A stretch of DNA of 64,000 nt. Source: an uncultured Nitrospinaceae bacterium. GTDB taxonomy: Bacteria > UBA8248. Positions 37,452 to 45,553 of the stretch are shown piece by piece. Under the pieces are notes generated by a model. The model did not search any database. It had not been told where the DNA came from and saw only the letters and a list, made by a program, of their open reading frames with translations. The stretch covers positions 366 to 64,365 of the forward strand of contig CAXFSR010000049.1 of NCBI GenBank assembly GCA_964005815.1, written 5' to 3'. Position 1 is the stretch's first letter. Each line of letters opens with the position of its first letter. The position numbers were made by a program, and so were the translations under genes.

Positions 37452-37937
37452 TTAATGACATCCGCCTGTGATCCCACGCTTTAGAAAATAACTCTGATGA
37501 TATTCTTCAGCAGGCCAAAAAGTAGTCGCTCTAGTTATCTCTGTTACAATTGGGTTAGAAAATTTTCCTGAATTATTCCATTTTTCGCGAGAAATTTGCG
37601 CTAATTTCTCTTCATCAACCTCAGCAAAAAAGATAGCTGAGCGATATTGTTCTCCTATGTCAGGTCCTTGCCTATTTAACGTTGTAGGATCATGTAAATT
37701 CCAAAAACAATCTAGTAACTCTTCATAAGTAATTATAGTAGGATCAAATTCAACCCTAACAGCCTCTGCATGACCTGTACTTGAATAACACACTTCTTCG
37801 TATGTCGGATTTTCTTTACTCCCACCAATATATCCTACAGAAGTCTTTAAAACTCCATTTAAACTTTGAAAAGTAGACTCTACTCCCCAAAAACAACCAG
37901 CAGCAAAAATAGCAACAGACAATTTCAAAACCTCCAA
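37452..37937 (-). CDS. msrA: peptide methionine-S-sulfoxide reductase
   Basis: 161 aa. The GCFWGVE active-site motif is present. Confidence 0.88.
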   Translation of the reverse strand: MEVLKLSVAIFAAGCFWGVESTFQSLNGVLKTSVGYIGGSKENPTYEEVCYSSTGHAEAVRVEFDPTIITYEELLDCFWNLHDPTTLNRQGPDIGEQYRSAIFFAEVDEEKLAQISREKWNNSGKFSNPIVTEITRATTFWPAEEYHQSYFLKRGITGGCH

Positions 37938-37957
37938 TTAAATTATTTTTTTGAAAA

Positions 37958-39049
37958 TTAAAGGTTAACCGTTATTTTTCTTTCTTTTCCTTCCACTACT
38001 TCTCCTATTATAGACGAACAAGAAGAACCAGTAGAAATCAATTTTTGTATCATCTCCTCAGACCTTGAAGGTTCTACAGCAATTATCAAACCTCCAGAAG
38101 TTTGAGCATCGTTCAGAACGGCAATCATATTTTGGTCTAATTTATCTGAATAAGAAACAAAAGAACTAGTCCACTCTCTATTTCTTTCTCCACCTCCAGC
38201 TGTACCTTGAATAGCGTGAGATAAAACTCCTTCAAAAAGAGGTATATCTGAAAATGAAATCTCAGCATCTAATCCACTTGCATCAAGTATATTGTGAAGG
38301 TGTCCTAAAAGTCCAAAACCAGTTACGTCGGTACAAGCATTGACTGGAAATTTCAACATAACTTCGCTAGCGGTTTTGTTAAGAGTTTTCATTGAATTAA
38401 TAGATTCCTCAAAAACACCTTCCTTTAATTTGTTATTTTTAGATTTAAGCACTCTTGAAATTTTTTTTATAGGACTAGTACTTTTGTTGAGATTCGTAAT
38501 TATTCCCGTTCCTATTTTCTTTGTCAAAATCAATTTGTCTCCAGGTTTCGCCCCGCTATTTAAAATCATATCTTTAGGCTCTATAACCCCAGTTACAGCA
38601 ATCCCGTACTTTGGTTCTTGATCATCTACACTATGACCACCTAAGATAACAGCCCCTGATTCGCGAACTTTCTCGGCTCCTCCGGAAAGGATCAAGCTTA
38701 ATATATCCATTCCCAAATTACACGGGAAAGACACTAAACTCAGAGCAGTAACCGGTCTAGCTCCTATCGTATAACAGTCACTAAGAGCATTTGCAGCAGC
38801 GATCTGTCCAAAATCAAAGGGGTCATCAACAATTGGAGTGAAAAAATCTACAGTCTGAACAATTGCCAAGTCTTCTCTTAATTTGTATACACCAGTGTCA
38901 TCACAAGGATTTGTCCCATAAATTAAATTTGGATCTACAAATGGTTCAAATCCTGACAGGGCTTTTCTGAGGTCCTCCGGACCAATTTTTGAACCTCAAC
39001 CACCCGCTTTAACCATACTCGTCAAAAAAACTTTTTTTTCATTCTTCAT
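37958..39049 (-). CDS. selD: selenide, water dikinase (selenophosphate synthetase) with in-frame UGA selenocysteine
   Basis: The ORF track's TTG start at 38869 is internal. The same frame stays open upstream through a TGA (38996-38998 on the minus strand) to an ATG at 39047-39049. This gives MKNEKKVFLTSMVKAGG-U-GSKIGPEDLRKAL...FVDPNL..., which aligns residue-for-residue with E. coli SelD (HGAGC17GCKISPKVLETIL...FVDPNL). The UGA sits exactly at the Cys17 position. Confidence 0.85.
38941..38995 (-). promoter_or_regulatory. candidate SECIS stem-loop immediately 3' of the selD UGA
   Basis: mRNA after the UGA reads GGUUCAAAAAUUGGUCCGGAGGACCUCAGAAAAGCCCUGUCAGGAUUUGAACC. It has an apical GGUCC-GGA-GGACC hairpin starting 13 nt after the UGA. 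The outer arms GGUUCAAA and UUUGAACC are also complementary. Confidence 0.5.
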
Positions 39050-40245: not shown

Positions 40246-41388
40246 GTGGATTTTGAATTTGATGAAAAACAGAAATTAATGCAAAGAACTTTAGATGATT
40301 TGCTCAAAAGAGTTTGTCCCCAAGAATATTCTATGGAATGTGACGAAAAAGGCGAAGCACCAATGGAAGCCTATAAAGAAATGGCTAAAGATGGATGGAT
40401 TGGGGTATCTACTCCTGAAGAATTTGGGGGTATGGGAGGAAATGAAATTGATATGTCTATAGTTTTAGAAACCGCGGGACATCATTATCTAGATTTGGGA
40501 ACTATGATTTTTCGGAATATCTGCTATGGATGTGATGCAATCTTAACAAGTGGAACTCCAGAACAGAAGAAAAAATTTGTAACTTCAACCGTCAAGGGAG
40601 AAACTTACTTTGCATTCAGTTTAACCGAACCCGATGCAGGCTCTGATGCTGCTTCTATTATAACCCGAGCAGATAGAGAACAGGACGTTTTCAAAATTAC
40701 TGGAACGAAAAATTATACTTCTGGCATGCCTATAGCTACAGATGTTTTAGTTGCAGTCAGAACAAACAAAAACGCAAAAAAACATGAAGGAATTACCAAC
40801 TTCATCATCCCTGCCGATAGAGAAGGTATTGAATGGAAAAAACTGCGTTTGATGGGACATAGAGCAATGGGAACATGTGAAGTTCATTACAATGGTGTCG
40901 AAGCTTCAGAAACAGAAATTTTAGGAGATCTAGATGATGGATGGAATGGATTAATGAAATACATTACAACAGAGAGATTATGTCTATCTGCAGCCAGAAC
41001 AGGTGCTGCAGCAAGCGCTCTAAAAATGGCGATAAAACACGCTCAAGAACGGCATCAATTTGGAAGACCTATTGGAAAGTTTCAAGCTGTTAGCCACATG
41101 ATTACGGAAATGCATACTCTAGTAGATACTGCTCGATTGCAAGTTTATAGATTTGCATGGCTTGCCTCCCAAGGTCATGCTGGGAGGTTAGAAGCTGCCA
41201 CCCTAAAACTATACGCTGCTGAGGCCTATAAAAAAGTTGCAGATTTAGGTGTACAAGTACTAGGAGGATATGGATATAGTGCAGAATTTCCAATGGAAAG
41301 ACATTATAGAGATGCGCGCCTTGCGACTATTGGAGCAGGTTCAAGTGAAATTCAAAGGAATATTATTGCAAAGGAATTAGGACTGTAG
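40246..41388 (+). CDS. acyl-CoA dehydrogenase
   Basis: 380-aa ACAD fold (three domains). The C-terminal GGYGYSAEFPMERHYRDARLATIGAGSSEIQ matches the ACAD signature. Confidence 0.85.
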   Translation: MDFEFDEKQKLMQRTLDDLLKRVCPQEYSMECDEKGEAPMEAYKEMAKDGWIGVSTPEEFGGMGGNEIDMSIVLETAGHHYLDLGTMIFRNICYGCDAILTSGTPEQKKKFVTSTVKGETYFAFSLTEPDAGSDAASIITRADREQDVFKITGTKNYTSGMPIATDVLVAVRTNKNAKKHEGITNFIIPADREGIEWKKLRLMGHRAMGTCEVHYNGVEASETEILGDLDDGWNGLMKYITTERLCLSAARTGAAASALKMAIKHAQERHQFGRPIGKFQAVSHMITEMHTLVDTARLQVYRFAWLASQGHAGRLEAATLKLYAAEAYKKVADLGVQVLGGYGYSAEFPMERHYRDARLATIGAGSSEIQRNIIAKELGL

Positions 41389-41426
41389 TAACTATTTATA
41401 ACAAATTAAAATTTCAGGAGTAATAA

Positions 41427-41894
41427 ATGGCTTTAGATTTAAAAGTTTTAGAAATGGATTTCCCTGAATTTGAAATTTTAGTTGAAAGAGGAAAAATAAG
41501 AGAATACGTCTCTGTTTTGGGACTGGAAGACCCTGTTCATTTTGATGTTCAGGCGGCAAAAGATGCAGGGTATAATGATCTGTTAGCACCAGCAACATTT
41601 ACTAGACAGTTCTGGCATGAAAATAACGAAAATGACCCTATGCAACATTTAGGTTATGACCCAAAAAGAAGACTGCATGGGGAACAAGAATTTGAATATT
41701 TCAAACCCTTGACTGCTGGAATGACATTGAAAGGAAAAAACGTGATCGTCTCCCACAAAGAGAAAGAAGGAAAACGGGGTGGAAAAATGACATTTGTTGT
41801 CATTGAAACTAAATTTTTAGACGAAAATGGGGAACTAGTCCAAATCGCAAGAAGGACTTTGATTGAAACCGCGGCTCCCCCTAAAAATAATTAA
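41427..41894 (+). CDS. MaoC-N-like hotdog protein (non-catalytic partner of a heterodimeric R-specific enoyl-CoA hydratase)
   Basis: 155 aa, MaoC_dehydrat_N/HadA-ChsH1-like. About 60% identical by eye to the ORF at 43992-44441. Confidence 0.7.
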   Translation: MALDLKVLEMDFPEFEILVERGKIREYVSVLGLEDPVHFDVQAAKDAGYNDLLAPATFTRQFWHENNENDPMQHLGYDPKRRLHGEQEFEYFKPLTAGMTLKGKNVIVSHKEKEGKRGGKMTFVVIETKFLDENGELVQIARRTLIETAAPPKNN

Positions 41895-41908
41895 AGGAAT
41901 ATATTAAA

Positions 41909-42334
41909 ATGACATTTGTTAAAGAAGAAATTCTCTGGGAAAAAATAAATGAAGGTGATGAAAAAGAACTCACTGTTGGACCAATTACTAGAACGGATTT
42001 AGTGAAATATGCAGGTGCTAGTGGAGACTTTAATCCTAATCATCATGACGAAATCTACTCTATACGCTCTGGTTTCGAAAAACCATTCGCACACGGAATG
42101 TTACAAGGAGGCATCCTAAGTCGTCTAATTACAGATTGGTTTGGAGTAGAAACTTTACGATATTTCAGACTTCGTTTTAGTGCACAAACCTGGCCAGGAG
42201 ATACAATAAACTGCAAAGCAAAAGTAATTAATAAAATAGAAGAAGAAAACTCCATAGAAATAGAAGCAGAAGCAACAAATGCAAGTAATGTTCTCTTAAT
42301 TAAAGCGAAAGCGAAAGTAGAAATCAAAAAATGA
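41909..42334 (+). CDS. MaoC-like (R)-specific enoyl-CoA hydratase, catalytic hotdog subunit
   Basis: 141 aa with the motif GASGDFNPNHHDE. Paralog at 43552-43995. Confidence 0.75.
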   Translation: MTFVKEEILWEKINEGDEKELTVGPITRTDLVKYAGASGDFNPNHHDEIYSIRSGFEKPFAHGMLQGGILSRLITDWFGVETLRYFRLRFSAQTWPGDTINCKAKVINKIEEENSIEIEAEATNASNVLLIKAKAKVEIKK

Positions 42335-43533
42335 AATTTTTACAAGATTACAGGATAATAGATTTAGGCCAAGTAATTGCAGGAACAATCGGAGGACTTA
42401 TTCTTGCTGATTTTGGTGCAGATGTAATAAAGGTTGAGTCCCCTAGTGGGGATATAGGCAGGAATCCTAACATAGCAGGTGTAGGAGACGTTTCGGGAAT
42501 TTTTCTTACTTTTAATAGAGGAAAAAAGGGTTTAGTCATAGACCTAAAAAATGAAGAAGGAAAAAAAGTTTTTCTTGATTTAGTTGCTGTATCTGATGCA
42601 GTTATCGCTAATTTCAGACCCGGCACACTTGATCGCCTTGGGATAGGTTTTAAAGAAATGAAAAAACACAATTCCGAAATAATTTTTGTTGACTCAAGTG
42701 GTTATGGTGAAGAAGGTCCCTGGAGAGATAAACCTGCTTTTGATGTTGTTGAGCAGGCCATGAGTGGTCATATGGCTATTACAGGAGAACCTGGTGGACC
42801 ACCATTAAGAAATGGCTCTCCAACTGCAGATATTTCTACTGCTTTATACACTGCTATTGCATGTATGGCTGGACTCCTTGGAAAACAAAAAGGAAAGGGA
42901 GCAAAACATTTTGAGGTTCCTATGTTTGATGTCCAACTATCTATGCTTGGTTACATCTCAACTATGTATCTAAATAATGGAGATATTCCTGAACCTCCAG
43001 GTAGTGCACATGAATATATGGTTCCTTATCAAGCATTTCCAACTGCTACAATCCACATTGTTTTATCTCCCAGGGAAGAAAGATTTTATAAGAAAATGTG
43101 TGAAGTGATGAATATTCCTGAATACGCAACAGACCCCCGATTTCTAACAAACGATTTACGTGTCAAAAACAAAAATGAGCTATTACCAAAACTGAAAGAA
43201 ATATTGCTTCAAAAACCTGGAGAAGAGTGGTGTAAACTATTTGAAGCTGCAGGAGTCCCTGCAGCTCCCGTCAATACTCTTGACAGAGCACTAGACAACG
43301 AACAAGTTGAGCAAAGAGGTTTGATTAAAACTTTCAAATACCCTGGATCGGGGGATGTGAGAGTGGTTGGGAACCCAATTATGGACATGGGCAGTGAAAA
43401 AAGTTCTACATGTGAACCTGCTCCTATGCACGGAGAACATACGATAGAAATTTTGAGAGAAACCCTCGGATATCAAAAAGAGAAAATTGATTCGCTTCTA
43501 GAAAATAATGTTGTTCAAACCGAAAAAAAATAA
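42331..43533 (+). CDS. family III CoA-transferase (CaiB/BaiF/Frc family)
   Basis: 400 aa with the N-terminal IIDLGQVIAGTIGGLILADFGADVIKVE signature. Start overlaps the hydratase stop. Confidence 0.85.
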   Translation: MKFLQDYRIIDLGQVIAGTIGGLILADFGADVIKVESPSGDIGRNPNIAGVGDVSGIFLTFNRGKKGLVIDLKNEEGKKVFLDLVAVSDAVIANFRPGTLDRLGIGFKEMKKHNSEIIFVDSSGYGEEGPWRDKPAFDVVEQAMSGHMAITGEPGGPPLRNGSPTADISTALYTAIACMAGLLGKQKGKGAKHFEVPMFDVQLSMLGYISTMYLNNGDIPEPPGSAHEYMVPYQAFPTATIHIVLSPREERFYKKMCEVMNIPEYATDPRFLTNDLRVKNKNELLPKLKEILLQKPGEEWCKLFEAAGVPAAPVNTLDRALDNEQVEQRGLIKTFKYPGSGDVRVVGNPIMDMGSEKSSTCEPAPMHGEHTIEILRETLGYQKEKIDSLLENNVVQTEKK

Positions 43534-43551
43534 GATTCAAAAATCAAGTTT

Positions 43552-43995
43552 TTAACCTTCGGGGACTGCAGTTAGTGTCCCCTGAACTAGCTTAATTCCG
43601 TTTTGATTGTTTACTTCTGCGTCTATTTCTATAATATTTTTACCCGATTCTTCATACTGCTTTACTACTCTACCTTTACAAGTAAGCAAATCGCCTGGCC
43701 AAGCCTGAGAGACAAAACGAATTTCAAATCTTCGAAAAGAGGTGGGACCAAGATTCTCAATTAACATTCTCGATAGATAACCTAATGAAAGAGGTCCCAT
43801 AGCAAAAACTTTCTCAAAACCACTTCTAATAGCAAAAATTTCATCATGATGATTAGGATTAAAATCACCCGAGGCTCCAGCAAAACGAACAATATCAGTA
43901 CGAGTTATAGGACCAACGTCCAGAGAAAGTTCCGTTCCAGGTGTTAATTCATTGGATTTTTTATACATTCGTGCCATAGAATCTCCTTTTGTCAA
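43552..43995 (-). CDS. MaoC-like (R)-specific enoyl-CoA hydratase, catalytic hotdog subunit (paralog)
   Basis: 147 aa. The GASGDFNPNHHDE motif is repeated here. Confidence 0.75.
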   Translation of the reverse strand: MTKGDSMARMYKKSNELTPGTELSLDVGPITRTDIVRFAGASGDFNPNHHDEIFAIRSGFEKVFAMGPLSLGYLSRMLIENLGPTSFRRFEIRFVSQAWPGDLLTCKGRVVKQYEESGKNIIEIDAEVNNQNGIKLVQGTLTAVPEG

Positions 43996-44441
43996 CCTGT
44001 TTCAATCAGAGTACGAAAATCTATTTGAACAATCTCCCCATCTTCGTCTCTAAATTCTGTTTTAATTACCACAAAAGTCATTTCACCTCCTTTTCTTCCT
44101 TTTTTTACTTCCGAGGATACAACAGAATTTTTTCCAATTAGCTTCATCCCGGCAAAAATTGGTTTGATGTATTCAAATCTGTATCCCCCTAAAAGTCTTT
44201 TTCCTAGATCAAAACCAAGATGACGCATTGGATCATTATCATCGTTGTCAAACCAAAACTGTCTCGTGAAAGTAGGAGGTGCAACCAAATTTGGATAGCC
44301 AGCCTCTTTCGCAGCATCCACATCAGTATAAACAGGATCTTTTAATCCTAAAGCTTTGGCATATTCACGAATTTTGCCTGTTTCTACAATAAATTCAAAT
44401 TCTTTGAAATTTCTGTCGAGAACTGACTTATCGAAAGGCAT
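43992..44441 (-). CDS. MaoC-N-like hotdog partner subunit (paralog)
   Basis: 149 aa with a 4-nt overlap with the downstream catalytic subunit. Strongly similar to 41427-41894. Confidence 0.7.
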   Translation of the reverse strand: MPFDKSVLDRNFKEFEFIVETGKIREYAKALGLKDPVYTDVDAAKEAGYPNLVAPPTFTRQFWFDNDDNDPMRHLGFDLGKRLLGGYRFEYIKPIFAGMKLIGKNSVVSSEVKKGRKGGEMTFVVIKTEFRDEDGEIVQIDFRTLIETG

Positions 44442-44483: not shown

Positions 44484-44924
44484 TTAATCAGTAAGATTAA
44501 CTACATTTCCATTGATTTTTAAACTACTTTCAATTTCTACAGGGTTTTTTAAAGTCCACTCCGCGAAACAACCACCTTTTGCATTTTTAGCAAGTTTTAT
44601 TACCTCTTCTGGAGAAGCATCAGAATCAATAGAAAGAAAAGAACGAAAACTATTGCAACCGCTTTCAACTGTCCCTTTTAAAACAGAACCTCTCAAGAAA
44701 AAATCATATTCAATCCTGCATTTTGCTTTCTTAAATGGTATTTTCATCATGTGCGCGTACCGCGCAACTTGGGTCAAAAGTCAAAAACCCACACCAAGTG
44801 CAAAATAATTTAACGGTTGTGGATACTCTCCGTCACCTCCTAATCTCGCTGGTTCATCACAATAAATTTCAAAATCTCCACTCTTCCCAACTTTTAGTTG
44901 TCCTTTTCCTTCTATGGTTTCCAT
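44484..44924 (-). CDS. OsmC/Ohr-family peroxiredoxin-like protein with in-frame UGA (candidate selenoprotein)
   Basis: ORF-track entries 44781-45101 and 44484-44777 are in the same frame, separated only by a TGA at 44781-44783. Read through, they give ...GDGEYPQPLNYFALGVGF-U-LLTQVARYA...AKNAKGGCFAEWTL. This resembles OsmC (NPEELIGAAHAAC59FSMAL ... KAGC125PVSQVL), with the UGA at the peroxidatic-Cys position. The start is uncertain: Met at 44924 is preferred, because the longer ORF to 45101 overlaps the SNase gene. Confidence 0.6.
44748..44768 (-). promoter_or_regulatory. candidate SECIS hairpin 3' of the OsmC-like UGA
   Basis: mRNA reads UGA-CUUUUGACCCAAG-UUGCGCGGUACGCGCAC. There is a GC-only stem GCGC(G)/CGCGC with a GGUAC/GUA loop about 14 nt after the UGA. 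This is a conspicuous GC block in an AT-rich gene. Confidence 0.4.
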
Positions 44925-45043
44925 CTCTGCCACTATTGTATTTACGTATCCTTGAGCGGGATGCTCTGGTTGATCGATTACCCTCTTTCCTGGGACATTA
45001 CTTTGATCTGCTGCAGTTGTCGGCTTCAAAACGTGAACTCCTT

Positions 45044-45553
45044 TTAAAAATTTAAGAAATCTTTTATCTTCTTTTTTCTTCTTAATTTCCTCCATTTCCA
45101 AGGAGGAAGAGGATTACTATGACTCCAAACTCCTATCTTTTTTTTTCGCGCTTTCGATTCTGCTTCTGATAAACTTAAATTATTTTTAGCGTATTTTTTG
45201 TACCACCAACAAAGCCCTTCAGAAACAAGTACTAATCCAAGATCAATATTCCCTTGAAAAAATACTTTTCCTATAACTCTGCCATAACGATCATACCCTT
45301 TACCCACAACTTTTACCTTCTTTTTAAAAATCAATTCTTTCACTCTTCTTTTTGCACTTACTCCACCCAATTGTCTTATCTCAGGACAATCGATTCCAGA
45401 TAATCTTATTTTAAATTTCTTAAAATTTTTCCTAAGATGAATTGTGTCTCCGTCTGGCACAAAAGATACCTCACCAAAAAAAGTTTCAGAAAATAGAATA
45501 CTAGGTGTGAAGAAAAAGAAAATCAAAAAAACAAAATATAGAAAGAATCTCAT
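45044..45553 (-). CDS. secreted thermonuclease (SNase-like) family protein
   Basis: 169 aa with an N-terminal signal peptide. DGDTIHLR...RLSGIDCPE...DRYGR matches staphylococcal-nuclease fold catalytic residues. The C-terminus is Lys/Arg-rich. Confidence 0.7.
   Translation of the reverse strand: MRFFLYFVFLIFFFFTPSILFSETFFGEVSFVPDGDTIHLRKNFKKFKIRLSGIDCPEIRQLGGVSAKRRVKELIFKKKVKVVGKGYDRYGRVIGKVFFQGNIDLGLVLVSEGLCWWYKKYAKNNLSLSEAESKARKKKIGVWSHSNPLPPWKWRKLRRKKKIKDFLNF

Follow-up and report, generated by a model that had tools for sequence, protein, structure and literature searches.

Two open reading frames lie end to end on the minus strand of a 64,000-nt stretch of DNA (hereafter the window) from an uncultured Nitrospinaceae bacterium, and the question raised by this locus is whether the TGA between them ends a broken gene or is read as a codon of an intact one. 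The two ORFs (44781–45101 and 44484–44777) share a frame and only the TGA at 44783–44781 separates them, as the first-pass annotation had described. The joined gene has 181 codons, with this TGA as its single in-frame TGA. The upstream ORF had been drawn as far as 45101, a purely mechanical limit that takes it, out of frame, into the upstream nuclease gene (the TAA of the nuclease gene is at 45046–45044). The likely start, judged from the sequence, is the TTG at 45029, because AAGGAG stands 8 nt upstream of it and the N-termini of homologues (MKPTT.. or MPKPTT..) agree with it. The gene had also been taken to be about 30% GC; its measured GC content is 38%, against 32% for the surrounding 2 kb. 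The evidence below makes it very probable that the two half ORFs form one gene, which encodes a selenocysteine-containing OsmC-like redox protein of a low-GC marine bacterium. The features of the locus are listed in Table 1.

Table 1. Features of the OsmC-like selenoprotein gene and of selD in the window (positions are those of the window)
Feature	Position	Strand	Description and basis
OsmC-like selenoprotein CDS	44484..45029	-	TTG start, 181 codons + TAA, Sec at residue 83; sequence and frame
Shine-Dalgarno AAGGAG	45038..45043	-	8 nt upstream of TTG 45029; read from sequence
In-frame UGA = Sec83, motif GF-U-LLT (UxxT)	44781..44783	-	Codon read; Cys in homologues; TGA in relatives
SECIS-like hairpin UGCGCG-GUA-CGCGCA	44752..44766	-	14 nt after UGA; spans codons V88-A-R-Y-A-H93; folded
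Cys154 codon (AKGGC-FAE), presumed resolving Cys	44568..44570	-	Invariant in alignment of Cys-type homologues
selD (selenide, water dikinase), itself a selenoprotein	37958..39049	-	TIGR00476, 344.4 bits vs cut-off 125; translation
SelD in-frame UGA, residue 18, AGG-U-GSK (KAGG*GSK)	38996..38998	-	Codon in translation
SelD SECIS-like mini-hairpin GGUCC-GGA-GGACC	38971..38983	-	12 nt after SelD UGA; folded

Profile searches were run on the read-through product with Cys put in place of the stop. The Pfam OsmC profile (PF02566) matches residues 65–168 with 42.3 bits against a gathering score of 27.5; the match takes in positions 1–99 of the 100 in the profile and runs across the UGA. The NCBIfam model NF041052 (OsmC_like_Se, "OsmC-related (seleno)protein") is matched over its full length (2–144 of 144) with 168.5 bits against a cut-off of 95. 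The resemblance of the joined product to OsmC, first noticed by eye, is thus borne out by both models. The UxxT motif listed for the family is present as GF-U83-L-L-T86, with U at the site where homologues P0001–P0007 have an invariant Cys. The Ohr equivalog NF052637 was not reached in the profile search of the read-through product (23.4 bits, cut-off 240). As far as its sequence can tell, the gene agrees with NF041052 and with the OsmC-like selenoprotein family on every testable point, which makes it a correct rediscovery and not a new find.

The two redox positions are defined by comparison with Cys-type proteins. At positions 83 and 154, Cys is invariant among seven full-length Cys-type homologues (41–48% identity). 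The profile built from these seven picks PDB entry 3cje_A ('OsmC-like protein') as the best solved relative, with E = 2.4e-16 over residues 24–161. The first conserved Cys of PDB entries 3cje, 2opl, 9wo1, 2onf and 1vla aligns with U83, and the second, in those chains where it is present, aligns with C154. In 3cje_A both Cys align, and the C-x-x-T-Q and K-x-G-C-F motifs are shared; being solved, this homologue also settles the fold. It differs in being a Cys form without the extreme N-terminal segment, and it has no assigned function, only the depositor's name. Direct profile alignments with the E. coli proteins are short and include one Cys each. The alignment with E. coli OsmC is confined to the AKAGC125 region, which faces AKGGC154 and pairs Cys125 with C154, and the alignment with E. 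coli YhfA is confined to the segment around the first Cys, which matches U83. The equivalence of U83 to the first Cys of the E. coli proteins therefore rests on the Pfam coverage, the PDB alignments and the equal spacing between Pro and the first Cys, which is 11 residues both in E. coli OsmC (P48–C59) and here (P72–U83). Two earlier proposals, that the UGA takes the place of the first redox Cys of OsmC and that the second motif mirrors the resolving-Cys motif KAGC125PV, both agree with these alignments.

A TGA at a Cys codon can also be a lesion. An OsmC-like gene killed by a nonsense mutation at this codon would need only one base change (TGC or TGT to TGA), and gene callers split or shorten genes of this kind, as seen in the database entries P0010 and P0011. 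The relatives of the gene tell otherwise. Scans of genome and metagenome collections gave 159 related loci and truncated database proteins led to two more, making 161. These loci contain 164 motif-matching sites, and all 164 have TGA at the codon 83 position. They are labelled Nitrospinota/Nitrospinaceae, Tectomicrobia, Betaproteobacteria/Burkholderiales and Acidimicrobiia, and their GC content ranges from 34 to 72%. Identity is highest, at 91–92%, to low-GC contigs of 'Nitrospinaceae' MAGs and to marine contigs from TARA/JGI (L003, L082, L083). A relative of 59% GC (L084) has 91% of its amino acids in common with the gene product before the UGA and 82% after it, but only 18% and 34%, respectively, of the bases at third codon positions, and there are no further stops. 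Among orthologues the downstream half keeps an amino-acid identity of 82–92% and an intact reading frame, with third positions saturated. Amino acids are conserved on both sides of the UGA and third positions have diverged, showing that both halves are under purifying selection as one protein. The TGA at all 164 sites and the protein-level conservation on both sides exclude a pseudogene, and the covarying Sec-specific hairpin that follows the codon also speaks against it; we give this explanation a negligible probability. The earlier judgement that read-through is more plausible than a pseudogene is strengthened by the same three observations. The comparative evidence thus supports that one conserved protein is translated across the UGA and that the UGA stands at the first redox-Cys position.

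Read-through by itself does not specify the amino acid. UGA could be decoded as an ordinary residue (Trp or Gly), by an alternative code or by non-specific read-through, and one database homologue (P0008) does have W at the Sec position. However, the window uses the standard genetic code, since 7 of its 44 long ORFs close with TGA. When all 64 kb were scanned for in-frame TGA, only two turned up in conserved coding sequence, in SelD and in the OsmC-like gene, both at catalytic Cys positions, and no further Sec candidate was found. Homologues carry Cys at the site and neither Trp nor Gly, and the SECIS-like hairpin is conserved and a Sec-containing SelD is present. Decoding as Trp or Gly is therefore highly improbable, and Sec insertion at codon 83 is well supported by the comparative data. 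Two of the database sequences show irregularities of their own. P0008 also leaves the frame further on. In the locus that gives P0010 (L002, around 520–540), a run of G before the Cys154 codon seems one base short, which causes a frameshift, so that AKSARGVVSPNG is called and not AKSARGGCFAEW; this is probably a sequencing error.

The hairpin lies exactly 14 nt after the UGA, in the SECIS-like position that had been proposed for it. A GC stem of at least 5 bp with a GUA loop, 14–15 nt downstream of the UGA, is kept in all inspected relatives but one. In an alignment of 120 distinct downstream sequences, 96.5% of the cells of the six-pair stem are paired. Three of the six pairs have changed on both sides, and none of 500 shuffles reaches the observed covariation score. 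The stem pair 20–30 is CG in 100 sequences, GC in 16, AU in 2 and GU in 2, and it is never broken. Compensatory variants of the stem include GGGCG/CGCCC, GAGCG/CGCUC and CUCGCG/CGCGAG. The A-R-Y-A peptide encoded over the stem is also conserved in Cys-type forms, hence part of the nucleotide conservation reflects constraint on the protein. The codons show an extra constraint at the RNA level. The Arg codon CGG is invariant in all 120 aligned Sec-form sequences, yet it makes up 1.7% of the Arg codons of the window, and four Cys-type genes (L162–L165) encode the same peptide with other codons, in which the equivalent hairpin is weak or absent. The hairpin codons GCG-CGG-UAC-GCG are rare in the window in general (GCG accounts for 11% of the Ala codons and TAC for 22% of the Tyr codons), and the joint probability of the set under window codon usage is about 5e-5.

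The first-pass annotation held that the hairpin stands out in its surroundings. In conservation, covariation and rare codons it does; in folding energy it does not. The region downstream of the UGA does fold into the hairpin, but the energy of the 76-nt region is unremarkable on its own (z = -0.69), and the significance of the hairpin is drawn from the other three properties for this reason. Rfam gave no SECIS or other credible match, either in the whole window at gathering thresholds or in a permissive scan of 44650–44850. As published (PMC1088965), a bacterial SECIS element is a stem-loop that follows closely on the UGA and has G in its small apical loop, and the present hairpin fits this description. 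Its behaviour in the alignments supports a SECIS-like role. For a wider comparison we considered what is reportedly the bSECIS consensus of Zhang and Gladyshev from 2005, with the E. coli fdhF type as the bacterial SECIS of reference. In common with fdhF-type elements, the hairpin lies within the coding sequence directly 3' of the UGA, its upper stem is GC-rich, its small apical loop opens with G, and the loop is about 20 nt from the UGA. Unlike them, it is very compact (5–6 bp with a 3-nt loop), shows no evident bulged U and is nearly invariant in sequence across phyla. This near invariance is explained by its coincidence with the conserved ARYA codons.

A second in-frame TGA lies 5.8 kb away in selD, confirming the Sec-containing SelD that had been noted at about 6 kb. 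The UGA at residue 18 falls at what we take to be the position of Cys17 in the GAGCGCK motif of E. coli SelD. The candidate mini-hairpin that follows it has the same architecture as the hairpin of the OsmC-like gene. Since SelD itself contains Sec, a working Sec-decoding system is implied. Profile search, inspection of large ORFs and tRNA search did not find selA, selB or tRNA-Sec within the 64-kb window, which contains no tRNA genes. On the sequence evidence the organism is a Sec user, and the OsmC-like selenoprotein gene marks it as such. An msrA gene (37937–37452, minus strand; TIGR00401, 206 bits) begins 20 nt downstream of selD, and the two (37452–39049, minus strand) may form a small selenium/oxidative-repair operon. 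On a metagenome contig (L096, 5290–6213) a SelD homologue with 30% identity to that of the window lies about 2–3 kb from the Sec-type OsmC-like gene.

In the mechanism that we propose, UGA at codon 83 would be read as Sec during translation, with the hairpin (5–6 bp stem, GUA loop starting with G) presumably recruiting SelB with Sec-tRNA(Sec), a role suggested by its conservation. The product would have the two-cysteine layout of OsmC and Ohr, with Sec83 as the first, peroxidatic residue within UxxT and Cys154 as the second, resolving residue. The selenolate of Sec83 would attack a hydroperoxide or another oxidant to give a selenenic acid, Cys154 would attack the selenenic acid to form an intramolecular selenenylsulfide, and an external thiol system of lipoyl, AhpD or thioredoxin type would reduce it. 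OsmC and Ohr are reduced through lipoylated proteins or AhpD (PMC8945050). By analogy with OsmC and Ohr, peroxide chemistry at Sec83 and Cys154 is the most likely function, and the peroxidase assignment is the weakest step of the mechanism. The earlier proposal of Sec at the peroxidatic Cys of a peroxidase is accordingly kept for the position, which aligns with the first Cys, while the words 'peroxidase' and 'peroxidatic' are carried over from the OsmC and Ohr subfamilies.

The protein shares with E. coli OsmC and Ohr the Pfam domain, the small size and two redox residues at equivalent positions. It differs from them in having Sec for the first Cys, an N-terminal extension of about 45–60 residues and very low sequence similarity. 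The catalytic Glu of the 'NPEEL' motif and the catalytic Arg are also not evident: in a weak, Pro-anchored alignment, N-P-E-E-L of E. coli OsmC faces Q-P-L-N-Y, and the upstream segment has no invariant Arg. R90 is invariant, but in the same weak alignment it stands at a position other than that of the OsmC/Ohr catalytic Arg. Together with T86, Q87, D58 and E59, which are likewise invariant, it is a candidate for a substitute of the OsmC/Ohr Arg and Glu. The E. coli proteins are lipoyl-dependent organic hydroperoxide reductases, and such activity of the present protein is putative. The protein may instead be a true selenoprotein but no hydroperoxide reductase, that is, a YhfA-like selenol/thiol oxidoreductase acting on another substrate such as a protein disulfide, a persulfide or a metal/metalloid. 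The YhfA-type proteins, a third OsmC branch of no known activity, retain both Cys but have neither the catalytic Arg nor the catalytic Glu (PMC8945050). The Glu that is not conserved here, the nearest solved structure, which is uncharacterised, and the distance to the Ohr equivalog (only 23 bits) all fit such a protein. On the other side, Cys-based hydroperoxide reduction, as in OsmC and Ohr, appears to be the sole biochemistry known in the fold, the two-Cys geometry is retained, and exchange of a redox Cys for Sec would be typical of peroxide-reducing enzymes. We regard the YhfA-like alternative as a serious possibility, although we lean to the other side, towards the peroxidase-like chemistry at Sec83 and Cys154.

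The family to which the gene belongs is already known. The 'OsmC-like protein' UxxT selenoprotein family (COG1765/PF02566) was described in 2005 by Zhang, Fomenko and Gladyshev from the Sargasso Sea, with three sequences and a SECIS figure (PMC1088965); it appeared again with five sequences in the GOS data in 2008 (PMC2398784), is listed in a 2026 review (PMC13188914), and is curated as NCBIfam NF041052. The present gene has the full-length HMM match, the UxxT motif (U83-L-L-T86), the UGA aligned with Cys, the stem-loop after the UGA with its small, G-containing apical loop and a marine source in common with that family. There is no essential difference; the source of this copy is a Nitrospinaceae genome of low GC content. 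Where the early papers could draw on 3–5 metagenomic sequences, the public data searched here contain more than 160 sites, including multi-copy and tandem ones. Since the 2005 publication already covers the family together with its UxxT motif and SECIS, and an NCBI model exists, nothing new is added to selenoprotein biology. The value lies mainly in annotation. Standard gene callers split or shorten this gene, as in fragments P0010 and P0011, and recognition of the UGA yields the correct 181-residue selenoprotein.

Across several phyla the Sec form apparently dominates this OsmC-like subfamily in the sequences collected here. MAGs of Tectomicrobia and MAGs labelled Nitrospinota carry 2–4 Sec-type genes each; examples are JAPYQX01 (L005, L045, L054, L070) and MGDP01 (L032, L033, L043). 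Tandem pairs of Sec-type genes occur in L014 (6241, 6854), L017 (1262, 1868) and L032 (5790, 6378). The window contains only one copy, and two are present in close relatives of its organism (L003 and L046; L004 and L034). With 48–54 selenoprotein genes, MAGs labelled 'Nitrospinota' (GTDB UBA8248) rank among the richest bacteria in BSepDB (PMC13326102), and one of these MAGs, FO_M_Nitrospinota_01, is the source of two of our loci (L014, L030). One could read the subfamily as predominantly, perhaps ancestrally, a selenoprotein family, in which a compact GUA-triloop SECIS is fused to the ARYA codons and gene and SECIS moved together between phyla, and the 2–4-copy expansion (some of it tandem) in Nitrospinota-labelled and Tectomicrobia MAGs as a major selenium-dependent peroxide defence of nitrite oxidisers. 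We consider this combined reading rather unlikely and offer it tentatively.

The gene neighbourhood varies between lineages. In the window the upstream gene (45044–45553, minus strand) encodes a secreted thermonuclease-like protein (SNase/EcnA-like), whose stop lies 15 nt before the selenoprotein start. Only close relatives (L003, L004, L082 and L083) share the order nuclease, OsmC-like gene, HadA/HadB-like hotdog pair and CoA-transferase. Clustering of neighbour genes across the related loci, in a set that also included spurious high-GC ORFs as contaminants, revealed no partner conserved throughout the family. The genes that recur near the Sec-type gene in relatives encode TctC-type binding proteins, a 2-hydroxyacid dehydrogenase, a MIP channel and an FAD protein; their occurrence looks lineage-specific. 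The MIP/aquaporin-like channel gene is near the Sec-type gene in L014 (5391–5781) and in 23 other loci of one MAG group, and this proximity may be due to synteny within the lineage and not to a functional link. In one short contig of 843 bp (L001, 360–725; P0011) the N-terminal ~35 residues are replaced by a 2Fe-2S ferredoxin-like domain (PF00111) and the ORF ends at the UGA; the fusion is either genuine or an assembly chimera. In the window, an acyl-CoA metabolism cluster (40246–44441) adjoins the selenoprotein gene and contains an acyl-CoA dehydrogenase, a family III CoA-transferase (CaiB/Frc-like) and the HadA/HadB-like hotdog dehydratase pair. The stop and start codons of this pair overlap, and two small ORFs in the cluster resemble the pair in tblastn cross-hits.
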